From: Stegostoma tigrinum
Taxonomy: Eukaryota
Assembly (NCBI RefSeq): GCF_030684315.1
Contig: NC_081373.1
Location: forward strand, 17,585,989 to 17,649,988
Length of the DNA: 64,000 nucleotides
Direction: 5' to 3'
Translations under genes and position numbers: made by a program
In this document: in pieces, positions 26,687 to 50,855 of the stretch
How positions within the stretch are numbered: position 1 is the stretch's first letter
How the letters are laid out: every line of letters begins with the position of its first letter
Notes under the pieces: model-generated
Databases searched by the model: none
Told to the model about the DNA's origin: nothing
The model's input: only the letters and a program-made list of their open reading frames with translations

Positions 26687-28436
26687 TACATCCCCCTCTC
26701 TGATGAAGGGTCTAGGCCCGAAACGTCAGCTTTTGTGCTCCTGAGATGCTGCTTGGCCTGCTGTGTTCATCCAGCCTCACATTTTATTATCTTGGAATCT
26801 TCAGCATCTGCAGTTCCCATTATCTCTGATACTATTTTAACCTCACTGCGAAGCCTCTTCCAGGGATGCCTAACCTGAAGAAGTTATCCTCCTCCCTCCG
26901 GACCAACCTCAGGGAATCTCTCTCCCATTGCAACTCTCTTGTCTCCACCTATCTTCTTTACTCTCCATCTTCGGTCCGCCTCCCCCTCTCTCCCTATTTA
27001 TTCCAGTTCCCTCCCCCCATCCCCCTCTCTGATGAAGGGTCTAGGCCCGAAACGTCAGCTTTTGTGCTCCTGAGATGCTGCTGGGCCTGCTGTGTTCATC
27101 CAGCCTCACATTTTATTATCTTGGAATCTCCAGCATCTGCAGTTCCCATTATCTCTGATACTATTTTAACCTCACTGCGAAGCCTCTTCCAGGGATGCCT
27201 AACCTGAAGAAGTTATCCTCCTCCCTCCGGACCAACCTCAGGGAATCTCTCTCCCATTGCAACTCTCTTGTCTCCACCTATCTTCTTTACTCTCCATCTT
27301 CGGTCCGCCTCCCCCTCTCTCCCTATTTATTCCAGTTCCCTCCCCCCATCCCCCTCTCTGATGAAGGGTCTAGGCCCGAAACGTCAGCTTTTGTGCTCCT
27401 GAGATGCTGCTTGGCCTGCTGTGTTCATCCAGCCTCACATTTTATTATCTTGGAATCTCCAGCATCTGCAGTTCCCATTATCTCTGATACTATTTTAACC
27501 TCACTGCGAAGCCTCTTCCAGGGATGCCTAACCTGAAGAAGTTACCCTCCTCCCTCCGGACCAACCTCAGGGAATCTCTCTCCCATTGCAACTCTCTTGT
27601 CTCCACCTATCTTCTTTACTCTCCATCTTCGGTCCGCCTCCCCCTCTCTCCCTATTTATTCCAGTTCCCTCCCCCCATCCCCCTCTCTGATGAAGGGTCT
27701 AGGCGCGAAACGTCAGCTTTTGTGCTCCTGAGATGCTGCTTTGCCTGCTGTGTTCATCCAGCCTCACATTTTATTATCTTGGAATCTCCAGCATCTGCAG
27801 TTCCCATTATCTCTGATACTATTTTAACCTCACTGCGAAGCCTCTTCCAGGGATGCCTAACCTGAAGAAGTTACCCTCCTCCCTCCGGACCAACCTCAGG
27901 GAATCTCTCTCCCATTGCAACTCTCTTGTCTCCACCTATCTTCTTTACTCTCCATCTTCGGTCCGCCTCCCCCTCTCTCCCTATTTATTCCAGTTCCCTC
28001 CCCCCATCCCCCTCTCTGATGAAGGGTCTAGGCCCGAAACGTCAGCTTTTGTGCTCCTGAGATGCTGCTTGGCCTGCTGTGTTCATCCAGCCTCACATTT
28101 TATTATCTTGGAATCTCCAACATCTGCAGTTCCCATTATCTCTGATACTATTTTAACCTCACTGCGAAGCCTCTTCCAGGGATGCCTAACCTGAAGAAGT
28201 TACCCTCCTCCCTCCGGACCAACCTCAGGGAATCTCTCTCCCATTGCAACTCTCTTGTCTCCACCTATCTTCTTTACTCTCCATCTTCGGTCCGCCTCCC
28301 CCTCTCTCCCTATTTATTCCAGTTCCCTCCCCCCATCCCCCTCTCTGATGAAGGGTCTAGGCCCGAAACGTCAGCTTTTGTGCTCCTGAGATGCTGCTTG
28401 GCCTGCTGTGTTCATCCAGCCTCACATTTTATTATC
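26687..28436 (+). repeat. Head-to-tail array of 5.3 x 329-bp PLE-derived units, each with a hammerhead motif (retrozyme-like)
   Basis: Exact 329-nt period and about 99% identical units. HHR cores start at 26700, 27029, 27358, 27687, 28016 and 28345. The array is flanked by the direct repeat taggag (26681-26686 and 28437-28442). Confidence 0.95.
26698..26729 (+). ncRNA. Minimal type I hammerhead ribozyme motif (copy 1 of 6; others at +329 steps)
   Basis: CUGAUGA-A-GGGUCUAGGCCC(helix II)-GAAA-CG-UC^AG. The core is complete, with an extra A after A9 and a palindromic ACGU helix III. Predicted cut is after 26727. Contiguous helix I is only 2 bp (CU/AG). Confidence 0.75.
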
Positions 28437-28649
28437 TAGGAGCTTAGAATTTTTAAGTAGAAGTACAAAGTGCATGCATTTAAGAATTAATTATGAATCA
28501 ACACAAAATATTGGGCAGGTACTAAATGCAGTAATGTACATAGCTTTGCATCCTTGTTATTGAGAGAACATTAAGCCATTTTTAGAACATCCAGCAAAAA
28601 AAATTACCAGAATAATGTTAGGGTTAAGACACCATAGTTATGGTGTTAG

Positions 28650-28780
28650 TGATAATGGGAACTGCAGATGCTGGAGAATCCAAGACAATAAAATGAAGGG
28701 TCTAGGCCCGAAACGTCAGCTTTTGTGCTCCTGAGATGCTGCTGGGCCTGCTGTGTTCATCCAGCCTCACATTTTATTGT
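28650..28780 (+). mobile_element. Fold-back PLE family-1 insertion with 17-bp TSD
   Basis: An inverted segment (tgataatgggaactgcag...gacaataaa) is followed by atgaagggtctaggcccgaaacgtc...attttattgt. TSD catagttatggtgttag at 28633-28649 and 28781-28797. Confidence 0.92.
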
Positions 28781-28900
28781 CATAGTTATGGTGTTAGACT
28801 TATTTCCACTGAACCAGAAATAACTAATGGAAATTTAATAGAGCTTTCTGCAAGTAGGACAAATTCTGAAACAGTGAAAAAGGAAAGACAATTTCTTCTG

Positions 28901-29000
28901 AAACAAAAACAAAAACAGCTGGAAAAATTCAGCAGGTCTGGCAGAATCTGTGGAGATAAATCAGAACTAATGTTTCAATTTCAGTGAACCTTCTTCACAA
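28901..29000 (-). mobile_element. PLE family-2 pseudo-LTR fragment
   Basis: aaacaaaaac...gctggaaaaattcagcaggtctggcag...taatgtttc...gtgaaccttcttca. Confidence 0.7.
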
Positions 29001-29252
29001 AGGTTCTGATAGAGAGCCTGTAGAGACACATTGGATGAATAGCTTCTTTCAGTGTTGTAAATTCCATAGGGTTCTATTGTTCATTGCAAATTAAAAGTTG
29101 GAAAAGTGTGTGACATTACAGGAAATTGCTTTAAGAAGAAAAATATGTAAAATAGTTTTCACATTCTCCGAGTGATGCAAAGCAGTTTGCAGCAAATTGA
29201 AATATCTCTGAAGAGTAGATGCTGCTGTGTCGACAAATGTACATCAAAATGT

Positions 29253-29498
29253 CCAGGTTCGAGTCCAGCCTCGGGCAACTATCTGTGTGGAGTTTGCACC
29301 TTCTCCTTGTGTCTGTGTGGGTTTCCTCCCACAGTCCGAATATGTGCAGGCTAGGTCGACTGGCCGTGCTTTGGAAATGCATGGTTACAGGGATAGGGCA
29401 GGGGGCTGCTTCTGGGCAGGATGCTCTTTGGAGGATTGGTGTAAACTTGATGGGCCCAAAGGCCTGCTTCCACACTGTAGGGGTTCTTTAAAAAAAAA
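29253..29498 (+). mobile_element. HE1 SINE, 5'-truncated
   Basis: B-box ggttcgagtcc, V-domain and CR1-like tail. Confidence 0.85.
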
Positions 29499-29737
29499 GC
29501 AATGAAAAAAATGACAAGTAAGTAAGGTTCTATGTTATTAGGTGAGCAATAAAAGTTGGTCAGGAGGATATTTGAAGCCCTCCCTTGCACTTTTTCCAAT
29601 AGTGTGGGTAAATTTTATATAGTCATCGATAATGGCAGACAGGGGTGCAGAAAATGGAAAGTAGTACAAATGATGGTGGGGGTGTATACCGTACAGCTTG
29701 CTCAAATTTACATCCCACTGATATCGGTCAAAAATGA

Positions 29738-29958
29738 TATCAGTGATAATGGGAACTGCAGATGCTGGAGAATCCAAGATAATAAAATGTGAGGCTGGAT
29801 GAACACAGCAGGCCCAGCAGCATCCCAGGGGCACAAAAGCTGATGTTACGGGCTAGACCCTTCTCTCTGATGAAGGGTCTAGGCCCGAAATGTCAGCTTT
29901 TGTGCTCCTGGGATACTGCTGGGCCTGCTGTGTTCATCCAGCCTCACATTTTATTATC
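29738..29958 (+). mobile_element. Fold-back PLE family-1 insertion with 14-bp TSD
   Basis: Near-perfect inverted arms meet at the HHR (ctctctgatgaagggtctaggcccgaaatgtc). TSD tcggtcaaaaatga at 29724-29737 and 29959-29972. Confidence 0.92.
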
Positions 29959-31189
29959 TCGGTCAAAAATGAAATTGGGTTGTGTGGAAAACAGGACCTG
30001 ATCTGCTTTCCTGTATGAGGTAATGTTAAAATTATTCGCACTAAATAGTTTAGCAGCTTATTTTAAAAGGCAATGCAGCAAATTCTTAGTACTGCTTTGA
30101 AATAGCAGCATAATTTACAAGGTTATAACTCATGACCATCTGATTTAGAGGATAGAATGCTACCTCTGAGTCAAACTGACATTTAAGTACATAATTGGAA
30201 GAACCTTTCAGCAAGCCAGGCTTGTGTGATGCCTCAGTTCTAACAGATTCACTTAAGAATCAAAAGCCAATGATCCTTTGCTAAAATATGTTGCTAAAAT
30301 AAGTTTTAATTAGTAAATTGATAAACCTTAAAGTTTCATTCCCAACTGGAAGCAGAAAATTAATTTTGGATAAAACTGAAATAGTTCAATGACTACGGGC
30401 CAAATCTTATGGCTTTTTAGGAATTACCACACTTCGTGGCTCATCACTGACAATTTTATGCTTTAGTATCACATGCTCCCAACTTTGATCTAGGTCTTAT
30501 CGAACTTCTTGTCTGATTCTGCCACAGATCTTGACAGAGCCCATGTCACTCAGACCCCTGTAAAATTCCACTGTGTATCTTTTATTGGAGTTACTAATTT
30601 TTTTTTTCTCTGTGACGCAAGTTTTTAACACAAGAAAAATGATCTTTGATGCAGAACCATCTGTGATTCTGAAAGCCAGAGTAATTTAAAAATATTTAGT
30701 TTGATGAATGTTGTATCATGTGCATCTTTAATTGTAAAACAAAATTAAAAATTGACTGCTTTTGTACAACAGAAGCATGCAACTTGTCTGACCTAACATC
30801 AAGTTCTGAGGATATTTTCAAGTGTTGTGCAAATAAAAATCACATCAATCTTAGCTCCTTCCCTTTAGCAGAGTACCTGGTCTTCTGTCACTGGCTCCTG
30901 CCTGGTTTTGTCCGATCAAATGATCGTCAGTTTGTGGATTAACTGATCAGCGAACACTACTGAGGAAGAAAGTAATTTGAGAAGAAAATACATGTATTTC
31001 TGGAGAGAGAAGGATCAGGAGATTTGAGGTGAAGCTGGGGCAGGCTTACTGTGAAAAGGATAGTCCTGGGTTTAATGGGGGTTTTTTTGTACTTTTTAAA
31101 AAGATTATTGTCTCATAGATGTAATCGTAAATTCAGAGATGGAAATGGACTTCAACATTGATGCAAATCAGGCAATTGTGAATCAACTG

Positions 31190-31288
31190 CAACAAAAACA
31201 GAAATTGCTTAAAAAACTCAGCAGGTCTGGCAGCATCTGTGAAAAAAAAATCAGAGTTAACCTTTTGGGTCCAGTGGCTCTTCCTCAG
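31190..31288 (-). mobile_element. PLE family-2 pseudo-LTR insertion with degenerate 16-bp TSD
   Basis: Minus-strand HHR remnant ctgaggaagagccactggacccaaaaggttaactc; flanks aattgtgaatcaactg (31174-31189) and aattgtaaatcaattg (31289-31304). Confidence 0.75.
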
Positions 31289-31317
31289 AATTGTAAATCA
31301 ATTGTCCTTTTTCAGAT

Positions 31318-31445
31318 AATAAAATGTGAGGCTGGATGAACACAGCAGGCCAAGCAGCATCTCAGGAGCACAAAAGCTGACGTTTCGGGCCTAGACCCTT
31401 CATCATTATCTTGGAATCTCCAGCATCTGCAGTCCCCATTATCTC
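31318..31445 (-). mobile_element. Fold-back PLE family-1 insertion with 15-bp TSD
   Basis: A minus-strand HHR arm is followed by the inverted downstream segment ttatcttggaatctccagc. TSD tgtcctttttcagat at 31303-31317 and 31446-31460. Confidence 0.92.
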
Positions 31446-31755
31446 TGTCCTTTTTCAGATCTCACTTGACTTTCATTCCCATTATCCACAAGGAATTTTC
31501 CCACCTGCGATCTAATCATTTGAGAGTTAGGGTCAAGGGTAGAGGAGGAATTGACTCCCTTCTTTATAACATCCTCTTGGTTGGTCACTACAAATGGTTT
31601 TCACTTTTTATACTCATCAATTAAAATGTAATTGAATCAAAATGAAGAAGCTAGTTACCACTTATTCCTGAGCAAAAGAAAGGGATTTTATCACTTACTA
31701 ACCCCAAGGAAAAATGATAAGGCACAATATCAAACAGACCTGAGAACAGGTAAAA

Positions 31756-32020
31756 TACAGTCATAGTGTCATACAGCATGGAAACAGACCCTTCGGTCCA
31801 AACTGTACATACTGAAAATAATCTCAAACTAAACTAGTCCCACCTGACTGCTCCTGGCCCATATCCCTCCAAACTTTTCCTTGTCATGTACTAACCCAAA
31901 TGCCTTTTAAATGTTGTAATTGTACCCACATCCACCACTTCCTCAGGAAGTTCATTCTACACATTTAAAATTTAAAATTTTCCCCTCATGTCGTTTGTAA
32001 ATCTCACTTCTCTCACCTTA
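31756..32020 (-). mobile_element. CR1 LINE 3' end
   Basis: Reverse-complement CR1 3' UTR and tail (gtcatacagcatggaaacagacccttcggtcc...tgccttttaaatgttgtaattgtaccc...gttcattc). Confidence 0.75.
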
Positions 32021-35000
32021 AAATGTGCTGAAGGGAAAAAAACTCAAAGCTGTATGGTTTATGAAATTCTTGTGGTGCTGGATTTTTAACCTGAGGTGAC
32101 AGTTATTTAATGTTGACTCATATCCGAGTGGTGAATTTTGACGATATGCTTGAGTTCTTGATGAATGGCTGTTTCCCCACTCAGCTTTTTCACTGGGTGC
32201 TCTCTTTGAGATGGTGATGAAAAACCAGGGAGAGAGACCACCTTCATTTTTTTGAATTTTCCTTCTTTCCATACCGCAGCTTAAAAGCAACTGTTAAATA
32301 TAGTTCTGTTTGTGTTTCTGGGCCTGGAACCATTGTCGTTCCAAGCTAGCTAACTGGCCGATTATCCTTTCATCTGACCCAACGTGTCGTTATCACACAA
32401 GTGTGAATAAAAACGTGAAACGAATTTATGGGGCGGGTTTGGTCATCAGTTTTCAATATTTTTAATCAAAAATGACAGTTTTGCTGCAGACTCATATGAT
32501 CCAACAGATGTTATTATTAGTCAAGTCAGATCCCAGTCTGAAGCCTGGCTTGATGGATCATATTTTGTTTTGGTTTGGTTTTAATGAATTTATATTTTAC
32601 TGAAACACAAACATTCAATGTTAATTTGGTTTTAACAATAAAACTGCAGTTTAATAAGCAAAATAAATGAAGATTAAATACAACAGACCAAACCAATTAC
32701 ATATAATATGCCCTGAAAGATTTTGAAACACACAGTAAAAATATAATCCCAATAATTGCAAAATACTCCTTTACAGATCCCAAAAACACCCTTTTATGGT
32801 GTTGAAAATCACGCTAGTCACACCAGAGAACAAAATCTCTTTTTCTTACACCTCGATTGGCTTAAGTTAACTTTGACGTCAACTCCTTGCCTGGAAAATC
32901 TTGTAGCACTTTCTTGGAACTTTCATACACCAGAATTTAAAAGTTCCCAGTTTCAAATAACCTCTTTACAGTTTTATCCAAACACTTTTGATGAGGGACT
33001 GTCACTACATGCCTTATTCTAACATAATCTTGTTTCATTTGCTTCTCTCTTTCTCAGGAGCACTGCTTTATACATCTACCTTCATCCAAGAACTTCACCA
33101 GACAGCCCTAAACTAAAACAAAATCTTTTCACCAAACTGCTAGTATTTCCTTTTAACTTAAAATCAACAATTCCAGAATCTTCTATCAGAAACCTTGACA
33201 CATAATTGTTTACTTTGCTCGTCAGTAAATCCTCCTAATGTAAATAAAAACCTACTCACGCTGAAAGCTGACTCCTTCACACTGTTTTAAATAAATCACC
33301 ATGGCTACAGAAATCCCTAAGAATTAATCATTAAACTCATCAGACACACAAGTAAATCCATACACCAACAATTCAAAATTCAGTCATTTAAATTTGAAAT
33401 GATATTAAAAGAAATGTCACACATACTGTATCATAAGACAGTTTTGTTTATTCCACAGAGGTCCCATGAAGCTTGTCTCAATCTGTAGGTGACCACGTTG
33501 TCATTTTACGTACTTTTTTTTTCCTTTTCAGTAAGCATTTCAGAGCATGAAATGTCTTGGGTGTTGGTGATGGCAATTAACATTTGTTCGTTAATATTTA
33601 TTACTGTTGCAGCAGTGTGAACCTGAGGTCCGGTATTTCTTGCCTAGGCAGTGATGGAGAATTGTAAACCTGTGTGTCTGTCTTTTAGGCCTTTTAGTTC
33701 CATCTCCAGGCACCACCCTTCCCCCCCCCACCCCCACCAACCCTATGCTTGCACCTCCTGTCTCCTTTTCTGACACACTTTGGACAGATTCTTTACATTA
33801 TGTTCCATTACATTACATCCAAAGCACAAGAAAAAGCCATCAGGCTCAAATGAGTTTGTCACATTTTAATACAATCTCATCTCTCCACATCAACTGCTCT
33901 CGTGGGAGAGGTTAATTTAGACATCCGAGGATAAAATGCCTCTCTGATCCTTTAGCCATCATCAGGTGAGCCACAGCTGGTTACTTTTCGGGAAAGTGAT
34001 TTCTAGCTTCCAGATGTCATGATCACCTTTTTTCCCAAAATTCCATTTATCACCTTCTAGAAGGATTATACAAAAGCAGTCTTCATTACCCATGCACCGT
34101 GCATAAGCATTTGCCCACAGTGAGATTGTTCTTAGAATACCTGCATGCTGATGGTATCTGAGATTTGAATTTTCTTATTAATGTATATGGGTACAAACAA
34201 TTATCCCACTGTACCAAAGGTCAGGGACTTTCAAAAACGGATTTAAATGTAAAAGGGAATTTCGAACGAATTAAAAGCAACAGACATGATATGTTCATCA
34301 CATAATCAATTTCTGTATCTCATAGCCAGAAGAACAGCAAAACAAAAAGCTTCTATGGAAGCAAACGACTAACAATCAGGAGATGGGGAATTTCTATTCT
34401 TGAGGGAGCAGTGCCAAGAATGTAACATTTTGAGTGTCAACATGGGTGATGGTGCATTGGGATAATGAAATGCTGATCTGAAGCTGGTTTCCCAGCAGCT
34501 GTGAATATGTGTAAAACTTGTTAATAGGATTTCAGCATCTCCATTTTAAAAAAATTAAACAAGCCATGGAGTAGGCTTGTAGCATCGTTATGGCACTGAA
34601 GGAAGCCATTTGGCTCACCGAGTCTATGCTGCTCTCCATTGAACAATCCAGTCAGTGCCACCATAGTAGAGGAGGGCACTCTGTACTAAAGGACTGCATG
34701 TTCCTTGGTTCCTGTTTAAAAAGTCTCAGCAGGAGCCATGCCTTTATGCAGTTCTGTGTTCAAGTGGAAACAAGGTCATCTGGCTCACTGATTTAACCCT
34801 GCTGGGGGTGTAGAAGGTTGTGTAGGTAGCAGTATGAGCAATAGATCTGAAGACTCAGAAAACAGTTGAGTCCAAGATGTTGTCAACCAAGTAAAGGTCA
34901 TTAGTTGCCAGTAGTAGTATACAGCACACATACATCAAAAGTTTGTGCCACGCAGTCATAGAAACACAACTTTAAACTCGCAAACACATTTACTTCTTTC

Positions 35001-35234
35001 AAATCATAGTTTGTGTAAAACCATAGAGAAGCATTTCTACAATGATAGATACTTTTCTTGGTGAGGGTTGGAGGGATGCGATGAACCTTTCAAAATTGAA
35101 AACGTTGTTTAGGAAAAAATTGCACAGAATTGAAGTTCACGTAACTCCAGAATGAGCAGTTCCAATAGTTCAGGATGGGCGTCAAATCCAAGCTTTCAAC
35201 CGGGGGAGGAGGGCTAATATCAATCATATTAGAT

Positions 35235-36680: not shown

Positions 36681-36755
36681 CTGCAGTGGCTTATAAAACG
36701 ATCTTAACTCTATTTTATCCTTCAGGGTTTTACATCCAGTACCTTCACAGAATCT

Positions 36756-37559
36756 ATGATCTGAAGGACTGAAGATTAGTTTCAATTAGTCATCCCTATT
36801 TCAGCCCAGAATGGATAGAAGTGAATAACTGCCTGGTCGATCCACTTAGTCCTGTAGTGACTGGGAATTAGTTAATGTGCGTCATTTGTTTGGGGCTTTA
36901 CTCAAGTTGTTCATTAAATTCCTCCAGTTCATCAAAACTCTTTTGAAACAGATTTTGTCAACTATTCGCATAGTGCACTAACTGATGCACTACGCTGGGC
37001 GTCACTGGCAAGGCCCAGGCCTAACTGTACTCACTTGGTCTGCAGGCTCATTTCAGAGGACGGTTAAAAGTCAGATTGTCGAGAGTCTGCAGTAACATAT
37101 AGCTGATGCCAGTTGGCTGACTCAAAGGCAATATGTTGGAAATTAGCTCGAAAGCCCATGATCTGAAGGACTGAAGATTAGTTTCAATTAGTCATCCCTA
37201 TTTCAGCCCAGAATGGATAGAAGTGAATAACTGCCTGGTCGATCCACTTAGTCCTGTAGTGACTGGGAATTAGTTAATGTGCGTCATTTGTTTGGGGCTT
37301 TACTCAAGTTGTTCATTAAATTCCTCCAGTTCATCAAAAATCTTTTGAAACAGATTTTGTCAACTATTCGCATAGTGCACTAACTGATGCACTACGCTGG
37401 GCGTCACTGGCAAGGCCCAGGCCTAACTGTACTCACTTGGTCTGCAGGCTCATTTCAGAGGACGGTTAAAAGTCAGATTGTTGAGAGTCTGCAGTAACAT
37501 ATAGCTGATGCCAGTTGGCTGACTCAAAGGCAATATGTTGGAAATTAGCTCGAAAGCCC
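36756..37559. repeat. Tandem duplication, 2 x 402 bp
   Basis: 36756-37157 and 37158-37559 are identical apart from two substitutions that I could see (aaaactct/aaaaatct; gtcgag/gttgag). Confidence 0.95.
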
Positions 37560-37584
37560 ATTATATGGAATCATAGAATTTTAA

Positions 37585-40400: not shown

Positions 40401-40579
40401 TGCTTAAAGGAAAATATATTGAAAATGATTACACAGTGTGGAGCTGGAGGAACACACTGGGCCAAACTTGAGGGAACTCATGGCACCTTTATGCATAAGT
40501 CAATCATTTTCACTTCTGGTATAATTTTTGTGAACTATGTGGCTTCCCTTACAAGCCCAAGTCTCCCATTTGATCCTAA

Positions 40580-40935
40580 CCCATCCACCATCCTAAACAC
40601 ACATTCCCTCCATTATTGGTGCACAGTGGCAGCAGTGTGTACCCATCTGCAATGCACTGCAGGAACTCACCTAGCTTCTTTGACAGCACTTTCCAAATCT
40701 GTGTGCTCTCCCGTTGAGAAATACAAGGGAAACAAACGTGGGTACACCATCTTCTGCAAGTTATTTCACCCGATGGATTGGAGCAATGTGCCTTATTTTT
40801 ACGGCCACAGGGTCAAAATGTTGGAACTGCCTTCCTAATTGCGTGGTGTATCTACATCAGATGCCATCTAAGGATGGGAAATGAAAGCTGGCCTTGCCAG
40901 CCATGCTCACATCCCATGAGAAAATCGGAAAAAAA
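40580..40935 (+). mobile_element. CR1/L2-group LINE (second lineage) 3' fragment
   Basis: NTHSLHYWCTVAAVCT...; tail ggatgggaaatgaaagctggccttgccagccatgctcacatcccatga. Confidence 0.7.
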
Positions 40936-43119
40936 AGACTCACCCTCCTTAGCAAGGGTTTGCAGCAAGTAGCTCATGTTACATATTGCAGATATTTTCA
41001 TCAACCTGTTTATCATTTTCATCAACCTTGCAACACAGCTCTGGAGTAGGTGGGTCTGATGCTTAGGCCTTGTAGCCCCAAGGTCGGGGCACCACAACTG
41101 CACTATAAGAGGCCTATGCTACACAAGTTTTATTTTTGAATTGTTTGGCATCAAATTAAAACAGCTCATCAAGTGGAAATAAGCCATTTGCCACTTGTTA
41201 ATGACTGATGTATTGCATGTTAACAGTGTTACAAAATTAGACTGCGATGTGAGGCATGAGTGTGAGTTTAACGCTTCACTGAAGTAACTTCTTGTGAGAA
41301 TGGCATAGATAGTGGGTTCCAAAATTAAATTACCCATGGCTATGGACCGTTGAAAAACCTAGACTAAAGTGGTCTTGAAAAATGCAATACATCAATAAAA
41401 ATGAGGAGGCTTGCTAAGAAGTGTTGAAAGCGTATCGGTGACCAATCCGAACATGAGTTGTTACCTGAGGGGGTAAAAAACAAAATAAATCACTGAACAA
41501 GAAATGAGAGAAGGAAGAAGCAGATTCCTTCACTTTCTGTGTTTTTTTTGCATATTTTCACTTAATGCTTTGTCATTCTTTTTGTAAAACACCAGCTATA
41601 TTTTACAGACTAATCTTAAGAATGCTACTTGCAAGCAAGGCAATGACATATTCACTGCAAAACACATACTTGCCATGTTAGGAGGCAATCAGTTTGGTGG
41701 AACTGAGGACCAGTGTTGAGCTGACTGCGGTTGTTCATTCCAAAAGTGACCCTGTGTTGTCATTCTATTTAACAACATTGCACCCCAAGAAAATTTTATA
41801 GCTGTGCATTATTAATAAAGAGTGATGGAAACTGATATTTATCAACATTTCTTTTATTTTAAAACATTTTAACGGCAAAGGTTGTTTTCATCACTCCTAG
41901 ACCCACATTCTTCTGTAGTTTCTAGAAAACAGAATATTGTTAAAAGAAAAATATCACAAAGTGCAGTTTCTTTGTCATGAGAGCTTTTTGTTTGAATGTT
42001 TGTGATTGGTTGGATCACTGTCTGCCAACTGTAAACGCTAACAGCCATGAGGACATTGCTGGTGATTTCACTGTATATATGGTCAGGAGGTACAGTCTGG
42101 ATCACTGCAGAGAGCAGGCACTTATAAAGCTGGACCAGGGAGGTTGGTCCCTTGCATTTTTATTTAGCTGTTGTAGAATGTGACTAGCTGGATAGCGCGC
42201 AGCACATTACGAAAAGGTTGAGGGGTCGAAATTCCTTTGTGTGTTTGAGTTAATAGAGTAAGTTTTGTTTGAAAGTACAGCAGCGTGAATGTAATCGGAA
42301 GCCGCAACTGGGATTCAGCACTAAATCTTCAACTTTCTCAGGAAAGGGAGGGAGGCTGTCTGTAGCTGCAGCCAGCATATTTCTGCCAGTGACAGCGATA
42401 CTGTTTGCAAGAAAGACAGAAAAAAAAGTTTATTAAATTAGCTCCTCATGCCTCTTCAATCACAGAATGTGGGGTTAGCTGATTTATATCCTGTGTCCAT
42501 TTGGTAGCCATAGTTTATAATAACCTTGATTATCAATAATCCGATTTTCTTAGATTTAACATGACAAATTGAACTTGCAGTATCTACTGCTTTTTGTGGA
42601 AGAGGGATTCATGTATTGAAAATCCTTTTGTGTAAAGAACAGACTTCTAAATTCCCTCTTCAATGACTTGGCTCTGATTTTAAGGTTCTTTTGCCCTCAA
42701 CTTCTCCACCAGCAGAAAAAAAATAATTTTCAATATCCTAAAAGCCTAACAATTTGTGTTCTTGTGAGATCTTTCATGTCCTGTCTCAATAGTTCCCACA
42801 GTTAATTGAGTATTTTTGAGGTCCAGTCATTGTTGTAATCCAGCCAAACACAACAGATATTTGTGCATAGCAAGATTGCACAAGCAATAATTTAATTGGC
42901 CAAATAATCCATCATATTGGAGCAAATTGAGGAGGGAATGTTATCTTAACATTCCGGAGAGCTGCTGGACGCTTCTTGCCTGATGTAGTTTTGACCTTCC
43001 AGCCTGAAAATTTGCGGGCGGAGGGGTCTCTGAAATGTTGGACCACAACTCCCATGGAGAAATGAAATCTCAAGCTAGAATGTGTGTACAGATGTGACAC
43101 CAAACACAATGTTTGAAGA

Positions 43120-43328
43120 GATAACAAAGTGTAGAGCTGGATGAACACAGCAGGCCAAGCAGCATCTTAGGAGCACAAAAGCTGACGTTTTGGGCCTATG
43201 ATGACGGGTTTAGGCCTGAAATGTCAGCTTTTGTGCTCCTAAGATGCTGCTTGGCCTGCTGTATTCATCCAGCTCTACACTTTGTTATCTCGGATTCTCC
43301 GGCATCTGCAGTTTCCATTATCTCTGAT
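43120..43328 (-). mobile_element. Fold-back PLE family-1 (sister subfamily) insertion with 14-bp TSD
   Basis: Inverted arms meet at the HHR. TSD acaatgtttgaaga at 43106-43119 and 43329-43342. Diagnostic variant gctctacactttgttatc. Confidence 0.9.
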
Positions 43329-43919
43329 ACAATGTTTGAAGATGCAATATTGCAACCATTAAATCAAGGCTGGTATTTGAACAGGAACCTGTGCCTCAAC
43401 AGCATGTGGTCGATGGTGGCATCTCCTGGAAGCAGCATTGTAACTATATAAAAACAACATTAGCACGTTGACAGGAGTGGAAGTAATGAGAGTACTCCAT
43501 TTTCCTGTTGGTTACATTCACATAACAGTCAAGGACATGGTAGAGATCAGAAGTTGTGATTTATTGCTGTCGAACTCAGGTAACAGTTGGCCTTTTCCTG
43601 CAAGCCAACGAGAACATTAAAATCAGCATCCCTTGCTGCAGAACAGCCTCACAGACACTTTGGAAAAATGTCACACCTGATATAAGCTATGGAATGCATC
43701 AGCTATACCTTAAGGATAATTCCAGCTCCACTATTCATGTTAACCTAACATCTATCTGCTTATTTCAGCATTAGGTAAGAGATATTGTTGATTCCTATGA
43801 GACAGTAGCTAGATCAAAACTACATGATTACAAACTAGAGTTAAACTGAACACTGACTAGCTCCACCCGGAGACTGCCATATTAGTGGTGGAGTTAAAAT
43901 ATGTCCAGCATTAACCCAT

Positions 43920-44236
43920 GGCAGCACAGTGGCTCAGTGATTAGCACTGCAGCCTCACAGCAGCAGGGACCCGGGTTCGATTCCAGCCTCAGGTAACTGT
44001 CTGTGCGGAGTTTGCACATTCTCCCCATGTCTGCGTGGGTTTCCTCTGGGTGCTCCAGTTTCCTCCCACAGTCCTAAGATGCGCAGGCTAGGTGGATTGG
44101 CCATGCTAAATTGTCCCAAAGTGTTCAGGGGTATGTGGGTTATAGGGGGTTGAGTCTGGGTGGGATGCTCCAAGGGGCGGCGTTGTTGGGCCGAAGGGCC
44201 TGTTTTCACACTGTAGGGAATCTAATCTAAAAAAAA
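43920..44236 (+). mobile_element. HE1 (V-SINE), full length
   Basis: A-box tggctcagtga, B-box ggttcgattcc, V-domain and tail gggaatctaatctaaaa. Confidence 0.92.
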
Positions 44237-44629
44237 CCCTGTCAGGCCAACTGCCTGTTGGGTTTTGACTTGCAGCAGATGTGTGATATACCTCTCAGGG
44301 ACATGCTCAAGATGCCATTGTCGTATCATGGCATGTGAGCTATTGGTACAAACCTCTCAGTCTCCATCTTATTGCTCTGTCCTCTTGCAGCATGGCACAC
44401 TGACAGAAGATTGTTGCAGTGTATCCAAATTGCCTTGGGTGAGCCCAGAAGTGCAATTTCCTGTGATTATTAGATACATTTGTAAATACCAGGAGCTTTA
44501 AAAAAATGTCCATTACATTGTCAAGAAAAATGTGATACGCATTGTGTCCTTATGTTACTGGTGCTAAGGTAAGTATCACAGAGTGATAGTTGCAGATCAT
44601 TAGTACATCTTACCACAACACAGACCTTT

Positions 44630-45066
44630 CAACAACACTCAAGAAATTTGACACCATCCAGGACAAAACAGCCCACTTGATTGGCACCACATCCACAAGC
44701 ATTCACTCCCTCCACCACCGATGCTCCGTAGCAGCAGTGTGTACTATCTACACTGCACTGCAGAAATTCACCAAAGGTCCTCAGACAGCACCTTCCAAAC
44801 CGACGATCACTTCCATTTAGTAGGACTAGGGCAGCAGATGTATGGGAACACCACCACCTTCCCCTCCAAGTCACCCAAGTTCCTGACTTGGAAATGTATT
44901 GCCGTTCCTTCACTGTTGCTGGGTCAAAATCCTGGAATTCCCTCCCTAACGGCATTGTGGGTCAACCTGCAGCTGGAGGGAGGACTGCAGCGGCTCAAGA
45001 AGGCAGCTCACCACCACCTCCTCAAGGGCAACTAGGGATGGGCAAGAAGAATGAATTTTTAAAAAT
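44630..45066 (+). mobile_element. CR1/L2-group LINE (second lineage) 3' end
   Basis: TLKKFDTIQDKTAHLIG...IHSLHHR; RSFTVAGSKSWNSLPNGIVG; KKAAHHHLLKGN then tail. Confidence 0.85.
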
Positions 45067-45269
45067 GTGAAGGGTAGCATTCCATGTGTAATGGTATGCA
45101 ATCAGTGAAGACAATATGGATGGCTAACTATTTTAGATGCGTGGGAGCAGGATGGCAGGAGTGGCACAAATTGGAAGCACACTTTAAATATACAGAGCTG
45201 TATCAGGTTTCAATGAAGTTTTACGTCTATTTATACAGGTATTTTATCCACGTCCTGGTATGATGGTAG

Positions 45270-45870
45270 TGGAGTAGGGCTTCTGTGCCCACGGCTCATC
45301 AGCTCTGCCCACTTTTCATTTCTTTTTATCTCTCTTTTCTCTTTCGTTTGACTGACCTCTTGCTGAAGAGCTCGGTTGCGGCGACAGCACAGAGCCGACC
45401 CAACAGAGCTCCGGCTCCTGCTCCTGCTCCCGCTGGCGGCGTCTCGGAGAGCTTTGGGCTCTCAGCACCTTACCTGCTCGGCGAGATGGTCCTAGTGCCG
45501 ACTCATGTCCGCTGCGCTTCTGTGTCCAGCGTAGATTCACGGAGGCGGCAGGACGAGACCCGGCGGGATCAGCAGCGGCTGCATTGAGGTGGGCACGAAG
45601 TCGACTCATGGCAATAGTGGAGTCGGGTTGCCGCTGCATTGGCGAGGTCCATCAGGGACTCAGAGTGGCAAAGGCGTTGGTGAAGGCGAGTGGCCACCGA
45701 AGAGTGACCACTTTCATTCCAGCCGCAGTGGCACAGAATTACAGATCTCACATTGTTGGACTTCGCACTTGTAGGTTATCTGTTCAGACCAAGAACTTAG
45801 CAATTCTTTCATACTGCCGGACAGCTCATTCATACCTTTTAGCAGAGTTTAAATTAATATGGTTTTAAGG
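45270..45870 (+). mobile_element. GC/CpG-rich non-autonomous element related to 9600-11150
   Basis: A pyrimidine-rich leader precedes the 31-nt block shared with 10958-10988 (inverted); the CpG-rich body stands out from its surroundings. Confidence 0.4.
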
Positions 45871-46170
45871 TGCCAAGTTTAAATTGGGATATTCGCACAG
45901 ATAACAATGAGGGTATAAAGCAGCCGCTATCACGTTTTTTTAAGTGACATCGTCTGCACACCAATGTTCTAACTAAATAATTGCTCGTACTTAATATCTG
46001 ATCCTGATTCGTTACTGATAAGGCAGCCTATGTTTTATTTTGGCTTTTGTTCCTTTAGCGTTTTCCTTGAGGTTAGTTTTTTTTTGAATATCACCCAGCT
46101 ACAGTACATATGTAAATACCTGGAGCTTAATACAATCAAACAGAGGCAACATGGATAAGTGAAAGGGAAA

Positions 46171-46849
46171 TCATAGAACATTACAGCCCCTTCGGCCCTC
46201 GATGTTGTGCCAACCTGTCATACCGATCTCAAGCCCATCTAACCTACACTATTCCATGTACGTCCATATGCTTATCCAATGATGACTTAAATGTACCTAA
46301 AGTTGGCGAATCTACTACCGTTGCAGGCAAAGCGTTCCATTCCCTTACTACTCTGAGTAAAGAAACTACCTCTGACATTTGTCCTATATCTTTCACCCGT
46401 CAATTTAAAGCTATGCCCCCTTGTGCTCGCCATCACCATCCTAGGAAAAAAGCTCTCCCTATCCACCCTATCTAATCCTCTGATTATTTTATATGTTTCA
46501 ATTAAGTCATCTCTCAACCTTCTCTCTGATGAAAACAGCCTCAAGTCCCTCAGCCTTTCCTCATAAGACCTTCCCTCCATACCAGGCAACATCCTAGTAA
46601 ATCTAGTATCAGAGATAATGGGAACTGCAGATGCTGGAGATTCCAAGATAATAAAATGTGAGGCTGGATGAACACAGCAGGCCAAGCAGCATCTCAGGAG
46701 CACAAAAGGGTGCTGATGAAGGGTCTAGGCCCGAAACGTCAGCTTTTGTGCTCCTGAGATGCTGCTTGGCCTGCTGTGTTCATCCAGCCTCACATTTTAT
46801 TATCCTAGTAAATCTCCTCTGCACCCTTTCCAAAGCTTCCACATCCTTC
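46171..46849 (-). mobile_element. CR1/HER1 LINE 3' fragment (same subfamily as 14964-15464), interrupted by a PLE hairpin
   Basis: RFTRMLPGMEGRSYEERLRDLRLFS...GSFFTQ; catagaacattacagc tail. Confidence 0.9.
46605..46801 (+). mobile_element. Fold-back PLE family-1 insertion with 14-bp TSD inside CR1
   Basis: Inverted arm followed by ctgatgaagggtctaggcccgaaacgtc...ttttatt. TSD atcctagtaaatct at 46591-46604 and 46802-46815; the CR1 reading frame shows the empty site had one copy. Confidence 0.95.
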
Positions 46850-46854
46850 ATGTT

Positions 46855-47790
46855 CGACAAAAATTCTAGGGTTCTTTGAGAACAATACATTGATAAAGGG
46901 AAACTCAGAAATGTAATGGTATTTGGATTGCTAAAAGGCACTTATCAGGTGCCACTTAAAAGGTTACTGCACAAGATAAGAACTCATCATATTGGGGGTA
47001 ATATGTTAGCAAGAATTGAGGACTGGTTAACACATGGAAAACAGAGACTTAGGATTTATGGGCCTTTTTCAGACTGGAAAGATGTAACTAATGGAGGCAC
47101 AAGGATCAATCCTAAGGTTTTGGTTATTTACTATCTATGGTAATAACTTGGAGGTGGGGTCAGAATATAGTGCATCCAAATTTACTGATGAGGCAAAAAT
47201 AGGTGTTGAGACCATATTGTGATGAGGACATAAGGAATGTGTGCGGGGATATTGATAGGTTGAAAGAGTGGGAAAAAACTTGGCAGATGAAGTTTAACAT
47301 ACAAAAATCAGAGGCCATGCAGTTTTGTGGGAAGAATCAAAAGGCAGACTATTATTTAAATAGAAAGAGACTCTGAAAAAGTGAGATCTCGCTGTTCTTC
47401 AGTGTGACAACAAAAACCAGTATGCAAGTCCAACAGCTTTGTTTGACAACACAGGCTTTCAAAGCCTCACTTCTTCTGATGGTGTTACCTGAAGAAGGAG
47501 CGAGGATCCGAAGGCTTGTGTTTTCAAATAAACCTGTTGGGCTGTAACTTGATGTCGTGTGATGTCCAAACCAGTCCAACACTGGCACTTCCACATCAAG
47601 AAAGGTGAGATCACGGAAAGTATTCAAAGAGGAGGTAGACAGATTTTGAAAACATTGGGGAGTTGACAGCTCTCAAGAAATAGCATGAAAGAGAAGTTGA
47701 GGCCTGGGACAGATCAACCATGATCTTGTAGAATGGTGGGGCAGGCTTGAAGGGCTGAATAGCCTATTCTTCTCTTATTTCTTATGTTCC
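46855..47790 (+). mobile_element. Degraded CR1 RT fragment and 3' end
   Basis: VPLKRLLHKIRTH.IGGNML..IEDWL...KQR; SKFTDEAKIG; WQMKFN; tail ggcttgaagggctgaatagcctatt...ttcttatgttc. Confidence 0.8.
47408..47598 (+). mobile_element. Fold-back PLE-derived insertion, HHR family 3 (degenerate)
   Basis: tac-CTGAAGA-A-ggagcgaggatcc-GAAG-gc-tt-gtg at 47486-47520, with an inverted decayed copy immediately upstream (gtccaacagctttgtttg...cacaggctttc). Confidence 0.65.
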
Positions 47791-48212
47791 CGGGTTTTGC
47801 AGATACACAGCACGTACTGACAACTATAACAATGCCCTTCCAGTTTTGGTTATTCTTTTGGTCACTGGTGGGTTGTAAGTCCCTGTCATAGAACACTAAG
47901 GGGAGTGTCTTCTGTTCTGGCACCCGATGCTGATTGGAGCTCTGAAGTTAATCTTCCCCCTTGTGTTTTCCCTCCCCCTCCCCACCCCGATGATCCACAC
48001 GCAATTCTGTATCCTCTTAGTCTTTGTGTTCCCTGCCTTCAGTCATGCAGACGACGCAATGACCACTTCTTCTCACGGCCCTGCTGGGTCAAAAGAATTG
48101 CTGGACATTTGATTTTCTGCCAGCTCTCAAAGAATCTCGACAGTGTAGAAGGAGGACATTCAGCCCATTGAGTCTGTGCCAACCCTCCAAAGAGCATTGA
48201 CATATAGTGGAG

Positions 48213-48312
48213 GTGGTGGTGTAATTGTAAAGTTACTAGACTAGGAGACCGGGCTAATAGGGACATAGGTTTGAACCCCACCATGGTAAGATGGTGGGAT
48301 TTGAGTTTGATT
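48213..48312 (+). mobile_element. 5' fragment of tRNA-derived SINE (58237 family)
   Basis: gtggtggtgtaattg...actagactag...ggtttgaacccca...agatggtgggatttgagtt. Confidence 0.5.
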
Positions 48313-48483
48313 AAGTGTTGTAACTCTTGGGGGGTATTTTGGGGGGGAGAGGGGGCTGGTGTTTCCTCCGCAGTGAAGTGGAAGGCAAATTAACGAATGG
48401 CCAGACTGCAGTAAGATGGGAGACAATAAAATGTGAGGCTGGATGAACACAGCAGGCCCAGCAGCATCTCAGGAGCACAAAAG

Positions 48484-48515
48484 CTGACGTTTCGGGCCTA
48501 GACCCTTCTTCAGAG
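48484..48515 (-). ncRNA. Minimal type I hammerhead motif in the PLE pseudo-LTR
   Basis: Minus strand reads CU-CUGAAGA-A-GGGUCUAGGCCC-GAAA-CG-UC^AG, identical to the array HHR except at variable position 7. Confidence 0.75.
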
Positions 48516-48742
48516 AGGGGGATGGGGTGAGGGAACTGCAATAAATAGGGAGAGAGGGGGAGGCGGACCGAAGATGGAGAGAAAAGAAGATAGGTGGAGA
48601 GGAGAGTATAGGTGGGGAGGTAGGGAGGGGATAGGTCAGTCCAGGGAAGACGGACAGGTCAATGAGGTGGGCTGAGGTTTGTAGGTAGGAGATGGAGGTG
48701 CAGCTTGGGGTGGAGGAAGGGATGGGTGAGAGGAAGAACAGG

Positions 48743-50740
48743 TTAGGGAGGCAGAGACAGGCTGGGCTGGTTTTGGGATGCAGTGGGTGGAGGGGAAGAG
48801 CTGGGCTGGTTGTGTGGTGCAGTGCGGGGAGGGGACGAACTGGGCTGGTTTTGGGATGCGGTGGGGGAAGGGGAGATTTTGAAGCTGGTGACGTCCACAT
48901 TGATACCATTGGGCTGCAGGGTTCCCAAGCGGAATATGAGTTGCTGTTCCTGCAGCCTTCGGGTGGCATCATTGTGGCACTGCAGGAGGCCCATGATGGA
49001 CGTGTCATCTAAAGAATGGGAGGGGGAGTGGAAATGGTTTGCGACTGGGAGGTGCAGTTGTTTATTGCGAACCAAGGGGAGGTGTTCTGCAAAGCGGTCC
49101 CCAAGCCTCCACTTGGTTTCCCCAATGTAGAGGAAGCCACACTGGGTACAGTGGATGCAGTAAACCACATTGGCAGATGTGCAGGTGAATCTCTGCTTAA
49201 TGTGGAAAGTCATCTTGGGGCCTGGGATAGGGGTGAGGGAGGAGGTGTGGGGGCAAGTGTAGCATTTCCTGCGGTTGCAGGGGAAGGTGCTGGGTGTGGT
49301 GGGGTTGGAGGCCAGTGTGGAGCGACAAAGGGAGACACGGAGAGAGTGGTCTCTCCGGAAAGCAGACAGGGGTGGGGATGGATAAATGTCTTGGGTGGTG
49401 GGGTCGGATTGTAGATGGCGGAAGTGTCGGAGGATGATGCGTTGTATCCGGAGGTTGGTGGGTTGGTGTGTGAGAATGAGGGGGATCCTCTTTGGGCGGT
49501 TGTGGTGGGGGTGGGGTGTGAGGGATGTGTTGCGGGAAATGCGGGAGACGCGGTCAAGGGCGTTCTCGACCACTGTGGGGGGAAAGTTGCGGGCCTTGAA
49601 GAACTTGGACATCTGGGATGTGCGGGAGTGAAATGCCTCATCGTGGGAGCGGATGCGGCGGAGGCGGAGGAATTGGGAATAGCGGTTGGAATTTTTGCAG
49701 GAGGGTGGGTGGGAGGAGGTGTATTCTAGGTAGCTGTGGGAGTTGGTGGGCTTGAAATGGACATCAGTTACAAGCTGGTTGCCTGAGATGGAGACTGAGA
49801 GATTCAGGAAGGTGAGGGATGTGCTGGAGATGGCCCAGGTGAACTAAAGGTTGGGTTGGAAGGTGTTGGTGAAGTAGATGAACTGTTCGAGCTCCTCTGG
49901 GGAGCAAGAGGCGGCGCCGATACAGTCATCAATGTACCGGAGGAAGAGGTGGGGTTTGGGGCCTGTGTAGGTGCGGAAGAGGGACTGTTCCACGTAACCT
50001 ACAAAGAGGCAGGCATAGCTGGGGCCCATGCGGGTGCCCATGGCCACCCCCTTAGTCTGTAGGAAGTGGGAGGAATCGAAAGAGAAGCTTTTGAGGCTGA
50101 GGACGAGTTCGGCTAGGCGGATGAGGGTGTCGGTGGAGGGGGACTGGTCGGGCCTGCGGGACAGGAAGAAGCGGAGGGTCTTGAGGCCATCTGCATGCGG
50201 AATGCAGGTGTATAGGGACTGCACGTCCATGGTGAAAATGAGGTGTTGGGGGCCAGGGAATTGGAAGTCCTGGAGGAGGTGAAGGGCGTGGGCGGTGTCA
50301 TGGACGTAGGTAGGGAGTTCCTGGACCAAAGGGGAGAAAATGGAGTCCAGATAGGTGGAAATGAGTTCGGTGGGGCAGGAGCAGGCTGAGACGATGGGTC
50401 GACTAGGGCAGGCAGGTTTGTGGATTTTGGGAAGGAGATAGAAACGGGCCGTGCGGGGTTGGGGAATAATGAGGTTGGAGGCTGTGGGTGGGAGGTCCCC
50501 TGAAGTGATGAGATCATGAATGGTGTTGGAGATGATGGTTTGGTGCTCAGGTGTGGGGTCATGATCGAGGGGGCGGTAGGAGGTGGTGTCGGAGAGTTGG
50601 CGTCTGGCCTCGGCGATGTAGAGGTCAGTGCGCCATACTACCACTGCGCCACCCTTGTCTGCGGGTTTGATGGTGAGGTTGGGGTTGGAGCGGAGGGAGC
50701 GGAGGGCTGCCTGTTCTACGGGGGAGAAGTTGGAGTGGGT
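48743..50740 (-). pseudogene. PLE reverse transcriptase / GIY-YIG endonuclease ORF (5'-truncated, one internal nonsense codon)
   Basis: RT motifs KPADKGGAVVV, LLPKIHK, RPIVS, TMDVQSLYT, GVAMGTRMGPSYA, LRYIDD; GIY-YIG motif NVVYCIHC..CG.LYIGET..RL..RF.EH. ORFs 49844-50644 and 48743-49612 are in the same frame, separated by TAG at 49844-49846. Confidence 0.93.
48762..48870. repeat. 3 x 39-bp in-frame repeat at the end of the PLE ORF
   Basis: ctgggctggtt starts at 48762, 48801 and 48840; encodes PTASQNQPSSSPP-like repeats. Confidence 0.8.
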
Positions 50741-50855
50741 GAGAGGGGTGGAGAGGTTGTGGGTGGTTAATGTCTCGATGGCAGTTTGAGATGAAGAGGT
50801 CGAGGGAAGTTAGGAGGCCTGGGGGTGGTGTCCAGGAGGAGGAGTAAGATTGGAG

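Follow-up and report, generated by a model that had tools for sequence, protein, structure and literature searches.

In head-to-head insertions of a very abundant Penelope-like retrotransposon (PLE) of Stegostoma tigrinum, probably of the Neptune type, the two arms divide two internal start sites between them: each site was taken by one arm in 138 of 140 insertions, about half being expected under independence. This use of one internal start site per arm suggests that both cut DNA strands copy one RNA simultaneously. The two-armed end pattern as such is the known PLE 'tail'. The element was followed in a window of 64,000 nucleotides (contig NC_081373.1, positions 17,585,989 to 17,649,988) and in 200 further loci, mostly young copies from one contig of one genome, found by exact seeds.

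Insertions in the window

Positions on the element are given as y, with y = 0 at the final C of TTATT(A/G)TC, which is window position 27120 in the tandem array. All seven insertions end at y = -3 to +1 (28436, 28780/81, 29958, 31315-18, 43120, 46801-04 and 48422/23). The first base 3' of the predicted hammerhead cut is y = -63, placing the cut 64 nt before site 1, and the common end 64 nt 3' of the ribozyme cut claimed in a previous sequence-only reading was thus recovered in all seven. The end motif as written there was one base short and gave zero matches.

Five of the insertions are hairpins. At 28633..28797, within a 17-bp TSD (28633-28649 / 28781-28797), the left arm starts at y = -11 and ends at site 2, while the right arm starts at y = -88 and ends at site 1. 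The hairpin at 29724..29972 has a perfect 14-bp TSD (29724-29737 / 29959-29972; 17 bp with one mismatch), site 2 on the left arm and site 1 on the right, and a rare substitution common to both arms. Site 1 lies on the left arm at 31303..31460 (15-bp TSD, 31303-31317 / 31446-31460), where the right arm is nearly all tail. The insertion at 43106..43342 belongs to an older subfamily (87-91% against the array), has a 14-bp TSD (43106-43119 / 43329-43342) and carries the tail on its longer arm, which reaches y = -93 against -78 for the tail-less arm. The last hairpin, at 46591..46815 (14-bp TSD, 46591-46604 / 46802-46815), has 4 additional bases at the junction. The tail arms of the five end at y = +34, +40, +35, +39 and +42, that is at site 2, 34-42 nt 3' of site 1. 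The continuation that had been put at 40-45 nt is therefore present, but a little shorter and more variable; that it occurs only in the inverted arm holds by definition, a head-to-head hairpin having no intrinsic forward arm. Sequencing-run contigs (one study, at most two samples) cross outer junctions of the hairpins near 28.6, 29.7 and 31.3 kb, which are for this reason unlikely to be assembly artefacts; no empty allele of these three was found among the run-contig joints listed.

The tandem array (26689..28436, forward strand) consists of 5.3 copies of a 329-nt unit, starts at y = -102 and ends at site 1. The unit is an internally deleted PLE comprising the pLTR, the tail and the ORF start. 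Its junction occurs 48 times on 17 contigs, which marks it as a non-autonomous, retrozyme-like unit that is spreading. Judged by motif, the array has the hallmark of non-LTR retrozymes, a type I hammerhead motif in two or more successive tandem units. A 6-bp flanking match was rejected as a TSD since it is within chance, which leaves the array without a convincing one; the expected TSD length of 13-17 bp was found in the hairpins (14-17 bp) and in the PLE copy described below (13 bp with one mismatch), but not in the array.

A minimal type I hammerhead motif was recognised by eye at 27029..27058 (forward strand) according to published criteria (PMC4209133), with the predicted cut after 27056. 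It has the core boxes, a stem II of 3 bp, a palindromic stem III and a stem I of only 2 bp. There is one motif per array unit and six copies in 26689-28436, one of them with a stem II substitution; an Rfam scan of the window returned 0 matches, hammerhead included. The AGCT palindrome at the cut could by itself draw junctions to that point, and L130 is the only direct-repeat locus that starts exactly at the cut without its help. An octamer at 26995..27002 (forward strand, y = -125), which precedes the main peak of arm 5' ends by 30 nt, presumably resembles a TATA box closely enough to be a candidate pLTR promoter. A cap-derived G preceded 7 of 19 arms starting at y <= -90, which lends no support to the promoter reading. 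A 3' splice site at y = -114 as the cause of the arm ends was rejected, since the ends lie elsewhere.

The element and its protein

Exact seed matches to the family number at least 96,427 across this genome (exact-pattern search). The natural copy L125 has a stop-free frame of 964 aa, a single ORF for a PLE-type RT with a C-terminal endonuclease. Its RVT_1 match (E 1.1e-5) is under the curated cut-off, the DKG, VVY..YIG and Cys/His residues were seen by eye, and a GIY-YIG match was absent from the Pfam search. The following features of an EN+ PLE are found: a single ORF with a DKG-motif RT followed by a C-terminal GIY-YIG endonuclease with CCHH, pLTRs in partial tandem (pLTR-ORF-pLTR copies with a unit of 3,513 nt), and a tail of 30-40 bp at one end together with an adjoining inverted, 5'-truncated copy. 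A Cys linker, CX4CxxC, lies between RT and endonuclease both in the window ORF 48743-49843 and in the full-frame protein. According to the accessible text of PMC8557442, a CX2-5CxxC linker at this place defines the Neptune/Nematis clades. A homologue search with the N-terminal region only gave no homologues, and a PDB sequence search gave no match.

The PLE copy of the window lies on the reverse strand at 48410..50855 including its TSD (13 bp, one mismatch), the element itself at 48423-50842. It is 5'-truncated, in single orientation and ends at site 1; judged from its sequence, it encodes the RT, the Cys linker and a GIY-YIG-type endonuclease region, interrupted by an in-frame stop.

Two initiation sites in further loci

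A tail-seeded set comprised 60 loci of 74 planned, and elements touching a locus edge were left out of the site-usage and pair counts. Ends bounded by a TSD were taken from 113 of 136 pairs. Site 1, the proximal initiation window, covers y = -4..+3 (27116..27123 in array unit 2, forward strand) and is overlapped by 98 of the 113 ends; site 2, the distal window at the end of the tail, covers y = +33..+44 (27153..27164, forward strand), with a mode at +34 to +36, and accounts for 104 of 113. These clusters agree with an internal start of reverse transcription, at neither the RNA 3' end nor the ribozyme cut, as had been proposed. The single fixed start nucleotide of the same proposal did not stand, y = 0 being compatible with only 46 of 113 site-1 ends: the ends are not broadly scattered, yet they fill windows of 8-12 nt (about 8 nt for site 1) and no single nucleotide.

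Complete head-to-head chains numbered 147, of which 136 joined site 1 with site 2 by automatic scoring and another two on inspection (L067 and L159); seven had one arm ending elsewhere. L130 and L168, both without a TSD, remain as exceptions to the one-of-each rule. In the set picked for having a tail, the partner arm still ended at site 1 in 51 of 53 cases. Single-orientation elements of the unselected set (n = 53) ended at site 1 in 24 cases, at site 2 in 27 and elsewhere in two, and among 110 simple pairs the tail was on the longer arm in 28 and on the shorter arm in 29. The fixed order of the earlier proposal, with site 1 for a main arm and site 2 for an inverted arm, is contradicted by these counts.

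The target appears symmetric. A TSD was located in 119 of 136 pairs and measured 14-16 bp in 94 of them, and the base bias outside both nicks is alike, with A at -7 in 79 and 73 of 113 and a purine at -3 in 90 and 98 of 113. Microhomology of at least 3 nt between target and RNA was found at 17/49 site-1 ends and 11/50 site-2 ends, about 7% being expected from shuffling, in a set of 54 of 65 pairs (two read-through, six without TSD and three with poorly aligned ends were dropped); the larger set gave 25/101 and 31/106. Priming by both target strands, also part of the sequence-only reading, thus appears to hold. RNA folding around the two sites gave no unusual structure (z 0.37 and 1.01).

The two arms of an insertion also resemble each other. 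They match at 944 of 1002 polymorphic positions, compared with 70% in shuffled pairs (maximum 79%), and 17 of 68 variants present in exactly two arms are common to the arms of one insertion, with 0.76 expected. The 5' ends of long pairs lie at most 15 nt apart in 10 of 35 (0.97 in the shuffle), and short pairs match in 5' class (Fisher P 8e-6). Most arms (179/220) extend upstream of the predicted ribozyme cut; the main peak, of 84 arms, is at y = -104..-84, about 30 nt beyond the cut, and only 27 start at y = -65..-52. The suggestion that the ribozyme usually sets the 5' limit is not supported by these starts.

A proposed model for two-armed insertion

We consider it probable that both strands are nicked by a complex with two-fold symmetry, which starts two cDNAs on a single RNA, one from each site. 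This RT-endonuclease complex, probably a dimer, would sit on the element RNA immediately 3' of the pLTR hammerhead and nick both target strands about 14-16 bp apart. Each target 3' end would pair by a few bases with the RNA and prime a cDNA, from site 1 for one end and from site 2, about 35 nt downstream, for the other, with either DNA strand able to take either site. Both RTs would then copy the same RNA toward its 5' end, which requires strand displacement, the site-2 RT displacing the site-1 cDNA, and the cDNA 3' ends would be joined via short inverted matches or a few added bases. The expected product is a head-to-head insertion with a full-length TSD and the tail on one side; priming by one strand only would give a single-orientation insertion ending at site 1 or site 2. 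Short hairpins may be run-off copies of the 5' end of a pLTR-initiated RNA (about y = -97..-92) or, less often, of a hammerhead-cut RNA (y = -63), if the putative promoter and ribozyme are active. Against the single RNA stand 25 of 35 long pairs without a common 5' end.

Gene conversion between the arms, or a pair of RNAs derived from one source locus, would also account for the shared variants. It is conceivable, but unlikely, that both strands prime while each subunit holds a separate RNA, drawn from the same source locus or a tandem transcript, in an asymmetric dimer with one site each. Such an arrangement accounts for the common variants without strand displacement; minimal hammerheads have been proposed to pair as dimers (PMC4209133), and some pairs have very different 5' ends, as in L045, where one arm starts at the cut and the other runs through. 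The 10 of 35 long pairs whose arms stop at arbitrary places no more than 15 nt apart argue against it, because one RNA 5' end explains them directly. Matching 5' ends and common variants would also follow if the site-2 cDNA snapped back and copied itself until a stop or a cleavage at site 1, a scheme related to the self-priming proposed in the accessible part of PMC3846280. The geometry allows this for 81 of 110 simple pairs, and an overlap through short inverted matches is seen at 57 of 110 junctions. We nevertheless regard it as quite improbable: the tail-less arm outreaches the tailed one in the 5' direction by more than 10 nt in 29 of 110 pairs, at times by more than 1 kb, and so cannot be its copy. 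Moreover, a site-1 cDNA folding back cannot give a tail, and site 1 is used alone in single-orientation insertions, with target microhomology as rich as at site 2.

The tail has been ascribed in print to endonuclease resolution of a transposition intermediate (PMC8557442, accessible text) instead of two RT starts, and a fly endonuclease is reported to require the tail for recognition (cited in the accessible part of PMC11167929). This reading has little probability, since both ends spread over 8-12 nt with microhomology to each new target, as priming predicts, and RT starts in vitro at both tail borders (PMC11167929, accessible part). No more can be said for an ordered reaction with the first strand at site 1 as main arm, the second at site 2 as inverted arm and the ribozyme setting the 5' end; it agrees with both single-orientation elements of the window and with four of its five hairpins, but conflicts with the tail on the longer arm in 28/110 pairs, the 27/53 single-orientation ends at site 2 and the 179/220 arms passing the cut. 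That the hairpins descend from a few master fold-back elements is next to impossible. Five junction types were seen two or three times each among the 110 pairs, but 104 junctions are distinct, those of the hairpins at 46591 and 31303 occur once and twice genome-wide, and both outer ends adjoin a locus-specific TSD, all as claimed for hairpins made anew at each insertion. Among these readings, two cDNAs on one RNA is the one we favour. Whether PLEs normally integrate by concerted double target priming, with a dimer, a symmetric target, one RNA and two fixed starts 35 nt apart, is in our judgement evenly balanced; if it is, the inverted pLTR and one-sided tail of PLEs generally would be a direct footprint of concerted double priming, which would replace the self-priming and endonuclease-resolution explanations.

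Significance

The element and its tail were known before, as was initiation at two internal sites (in vitro, 2024; PMC11167929, accessible part), and the novelty was overrated in the sequence-only reading because tail and internal initiation had been published. The one-site-per-arm rule and the dual-priming model were not found in the published literature searched; older PLE papers and a supplementary figure of PMC11167929 may hold part of them. The origin of inverted, one-tailed PLE insertions is called undefined in the accessible text of PMC8557442. For these a specific model, testable in the existing in vitro system, is offered by the one-site-per-arm rule together with the symmetric target, a stagger of 14-16 bp and the common-template signal, and the genomic signature extends internal initiation beyond Poseidon, to a Neptune-type element. 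Given at least 96,427 exact seed matches, two-site insertion supplies palindromes and ribozyme-bearing arrays to this genome on a large scale.

Comparison with known systems

In L1 twin priming both target strands prime cDNA, which gives an inversion inside the TSD; the second primer anneals further upstream, and each arm represents a different part of the RNA. Priming by both strands and the inversion within the TSD are found here as well, whereas the starts lie at defined neighbouring sites and the arms overlap on the RNA, so that the insertions do not qualify as twin priming of the L1 type; L037 and L064, with a layout like that of L1, are exceptions.

Non-LTR retrozymes (bioRxiv 10.64898/2026.07.22.740005, accessible part) resemble the array in being hammerhead-bearing, pLTR-derived tandem units at many loci. 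The arrays here, known from DNA alone, differ in being bounded by the site 1 and site 2 ends of the parent PLE, which ties them to the PLE insertion machinery.

The closest likeness is with the Poseidon PLE of the green anole in vitro (Frangieh et al. 2024, PMC11167929), for which the accessible text describes two internal RT start sites bounding the tail, cutting and extension of both target strands, a predicted dimer and insertion by hammerhead mutants. Both elements have two adjacent internal starts 3' of the hammerhead with the tail between them, but the shark element has a Neptune/Nematis-type Cys linker. The Poseidon start sites, in that text, are bulk data, equal between strands, and the two sites are unlinked to a single event or to inverted arms; an ATT preference is given at the cut, where the bias here lies 3-8 nt outside each nick.

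Canonical EN+ PLE insertions, as described in the accessible parts of PMC8557442, PMC3846280 and PMC8969392, are partial tandems with an adjoining inverted, 5'-truncated copy and often a tail of 30-40 bp at one end, the TSDs of rotifer PLEs being 8-10 bp. All features of the canonical structure are present in the shark element. In those accounts the tail stems from endonuclease resolution, self-priming explains the inversion and the cycle is called undefined, whereas here exactly one arm carries the tail in 138 of 140 insertions and both arms look target-primed.

Insertion ends in the window

Positions are expressed as y and counted from the final C of TTATT(A/G)TC (y = 0; window 27120, within the tandem array), which puts the first base past the predicted hammerhead cut at y = −63. 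Ends near y = 0 were designated site 1, those near y = +35 site 2, and the stretch between them the tail. The array (26689–28436, forward strand, ending at 28436), the Penelope-like element (PLE; 48423–50842, reverse strand, ending at 48422/23) and five hairpins, head-to-head two-armed insertions at 28633–28797, 29724–29972, 31303–31460, 43106–43342 and 46591–46815 (site-1 ends at 28780/81, 29958, 31315–18, 43120 and 46801–04), all end at y = −3 to +1. The sequence-only reading that these seven insertions terminate at one internal site was borne out; the terminal motif it gave was one base short and had no match anywhere in the search. Tail arms of the hairpins end at y = +34 to +42. TSDs were 14–17 bp for the five hairpins and 13 bp with one mismatch for the PLE; the candidate TSD of the array, a 6-bp match only, is no more than chance and was rejected. 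Outer junctions of three hairpins were spanned by contigs from runs of one study.

The pseudo-LTR (pLTR) motif is predicted to be a minimal hammerhead whose stem I measures 2 bp, and it resembles a fly variant described in the accessible text of PMC4209133. It gave no Rfam match in the window scan.

Other repeats are present in the window: a tandem repeat with a period of 26 nt (10428–10967), two identical copies spaced 402 nt (36756–37457) and fragments of a repeat (14437–15464, with two inverted, and 46182–46830) whose translation we take to resemble a LINE C-terminus. The 46591 hairpin is inserted in the third of these fragments. A second short-repeat family with several inverted pairs (8066–8136, 15952–16115, 28913–28996, 31202–31285, 53664–53729, 55465–55548 and 61168–61342) shows a weak likeness to the PLE pLTR around y = −60 to −16, and probably consists of hairpins inserted by an older family of PLEs.

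Parent element and arrays

Judging by its sequence, the parent is an endonuclease-bearing PLE. Natural pLTR-ORF-pLTR copies have a unit of 3,513 nt. One copy (L125) holds a stop-free frame of 964 aa with an RVT_1 match below the cut-off (E 1.1e-5), in which a DKG motif, a CX4CxxC linker and a GIY-YIG-type region were recognized by eye; according to the accessible text of PMC8557442, such a linker distinguishes the clades Neptune and Nematis. In the 3.2-Gb genome there were 96,427 exact matches to a 32-nt seed whose last base is y = −3, 16,393 to the seed with 17 further bases (one variant) and 1,740 to a pattern running through site 2.

The array unit of 329 nt is a PLE with an internal deletion, and its unit junction was found 48 times on 17 contigs. 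Related arrays on one contig, C1 (L107, L132–L136), have periods of 166, 293, 313, 329, 336 and 362 nt, the PLE being internally deleted in a different way in each. The array resembles the retrozymes described in the available part of bioRxiv 10.64898/2026.07.22.740005.

One site per arm

The window and 200 loci were analysed: L001–L084, containing the first 100 seed matches (C1, 0–3 Mb); L085–L090, from the 60 kb adjoining the window; L091–L140, mostly picked for read-through of the tail; and L141–L200, 60 loci of 74 planned, picked for presence of the tail. This sample is biased towards young copies and a single contig.

Site 1 lay at one outer end and site 2 at the other in 136 of 147 complete head-to-head chains, and seven had one arm ending elsewhere. 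On inspection two more, one of two neighbours joined in chaining (L067) and one nested within another copy (L159), resolved to the same arrangement, giving 138/140 with the seven left out. Both exceptions lack a TSD: L130 is compound (two site-1 ends) and L168 belongs to an old subfamily (two site-2 ends). Since single-orientation elements of an unselected set use both sites about equally (24/53 site 1, 27/53 site 2), independent choice would leave both arms at the same site in about half of the pairs; for 138/139, with L130 excluded, binomial P is 4e-40. By automatic count, 51/53 of the tail-selected set had one of each, and most inverted arrays in L132–L139 likewise have site 1 at one end and site 2 at the other.

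Site 1 is a window rather than the single fixed nucleotide first proposed: y = −4 to +3 is overlapped by 98/113 ends, and y = 0 is possible for only 46/113. Site 2 is wider (y = +33 to +44, 104/113). The proposed order of a site-1 main arm and a site-2 inverted arm did not hold either; of 110 simple pairs, 29 had the site-1 arm and 28 the site-2 arm reaching further 5', with 53 within 10 nt, so neither arm is consistently the main one.

Both insertion ends appear target-primed. TSDs were found in 119/136 head-to-head pairs, 94 of the 119 being 14–16 bp, and in 9/21 (site 1) and 25/53 (site 2) young single-orientation copies, with lengths scattered over 9–16 bp. The base bias outside the nicks is alike on both strands, with A at −7 in 79/113 and 73/113 and a purine at −3 in 90/113 and 98/113. 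Target-RNA microhomology of at least 3 nt occurred at 17/49 site-1 and 11/50 site-2 ends (shuffle about 7%), and at 25/101 and 31/106 in a larger set.

Template, joining and mechanism

The two arms of one insertion have a common template. Paired arms match at 944 of the 1002 polymorphic positions, compared with 70% and at most 79% for shuffled pairs, and diverge by 1.8%, versus 4.5% when shuffled; of 68 variants present in exactly two arms, 17 were common to one insertion (0.76 expected). The 5' ends of long pairs lay within 15 nt of each other in 10/35 (shuffle 0.97), and in the remaining 25 they did not.

Hairpins arise anew at each insertion, as had been supposed: 104 distinct junctions were counted in 110 pairs, and two window junctions occurred once and twice genome-wide. 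By BLAST boundaries, the arms overlap by 1–7 nt in 57 of the 110, meet exactly in 10 and are separated by extra bases in 43, a spectrum resembling that of microhomology-mediated end joining, which yields such junctions. About two and a half vertebrate telomere repeat units lie between the arms at L019:2316–2332, where a contribution of telomerase or telomeric RNA to joining is possible. At L030:2096–2245, 150 nt unmatched to the reference element are caught between two long arms with near-equal 5' ends. The inverted arm at L037:2996–3641 and L064:3510–3672 is an internal fragment within a 14–15 bp TSD, reminiscent of L1-type twin priming.

The simplest account, and one we think rather probable, is that a two-fold symmetric complex nicks both target strands 14–16 bp apart, that two cDNAs would be primed on one RNA, one from each site, and that their ends would then be joined. 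Four elements of this account are inferred: that the complex is a dimer, that both cDNAs are copied from one RNA molecule, that strand displacement takes place, and how the ends are joined. Fold-back of one cDNA fails for the 29/110 pairs in which the tail-less arm is the longer one. The main rival is two RNAs from one source; a common source locus or gene conversion could account for the shared variants, though not easily for matching arbitrary 5' ends. Two-site priming on one RNA is akin to L1 twin priming, which works alike, but the shark insertions fall outside that process because their arms overlap.

5' ends of the arms

The ribozyme had been proposed to delimit the template, and as a general limit this does not stand, as 179/220 arms pass the cut; some use of cut RNA as template is nevertheless likely, because paired arms agree in the class at −65 to −52 (9/13, Fisher P 8e-6) and the direct repeats of L130 begin at the first base past the cut and run to about y = +33. 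An AGCT palindrome at the cut could be the source of some hairpins starting there. The L130 unit (7731–8052) looks like template jumping from the 5' end of cut RNA to site 2. L105:1119–2004, head-to-head with a 16-bp TSD, has its left outer end at y = −62 adjoining the cut, where reverse transcription may have been primed at the 3' terminus of the upstream product of cleavage.

Of the 220 5' ends, 84 lie at y = −104 to −84, 27 at −65 to −52 and 8 at −64 to −62. The main peak is 30 nt downstream of an octamer at y = −125, which we regard as TATA-like, and therefore suggests run-off at a candidate pLTR transcription start. A cap-derived G was not evident (7/19 arms). The pLTR promoter of fly Penelope is TATA-less in the accessible text of PMC2377424.

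Comparison with known elements

The one-site-per-arm regularity was not found in the more recent PLE literature covered by the search. It is the one mechanistic feature here that may be new, and the element belongs to a known kind. A 30–40 bp tail, often one-ended, and an inverted truncated copy alongside are standard PLE traits in the accessible parts of PMC8557442, PMC3846280 and PMC8969392. The internal start of reverse transcription, the first inference of the sequence-only reading, is already published, since the available text of PMC11167929 shows for an anole element in vitro that it begins at two internal sites flanking the tail. Both strands are cut and extended there, alike in bulk, a dimer is predicted, and hammerhead cleavage is dispensable in vitro.
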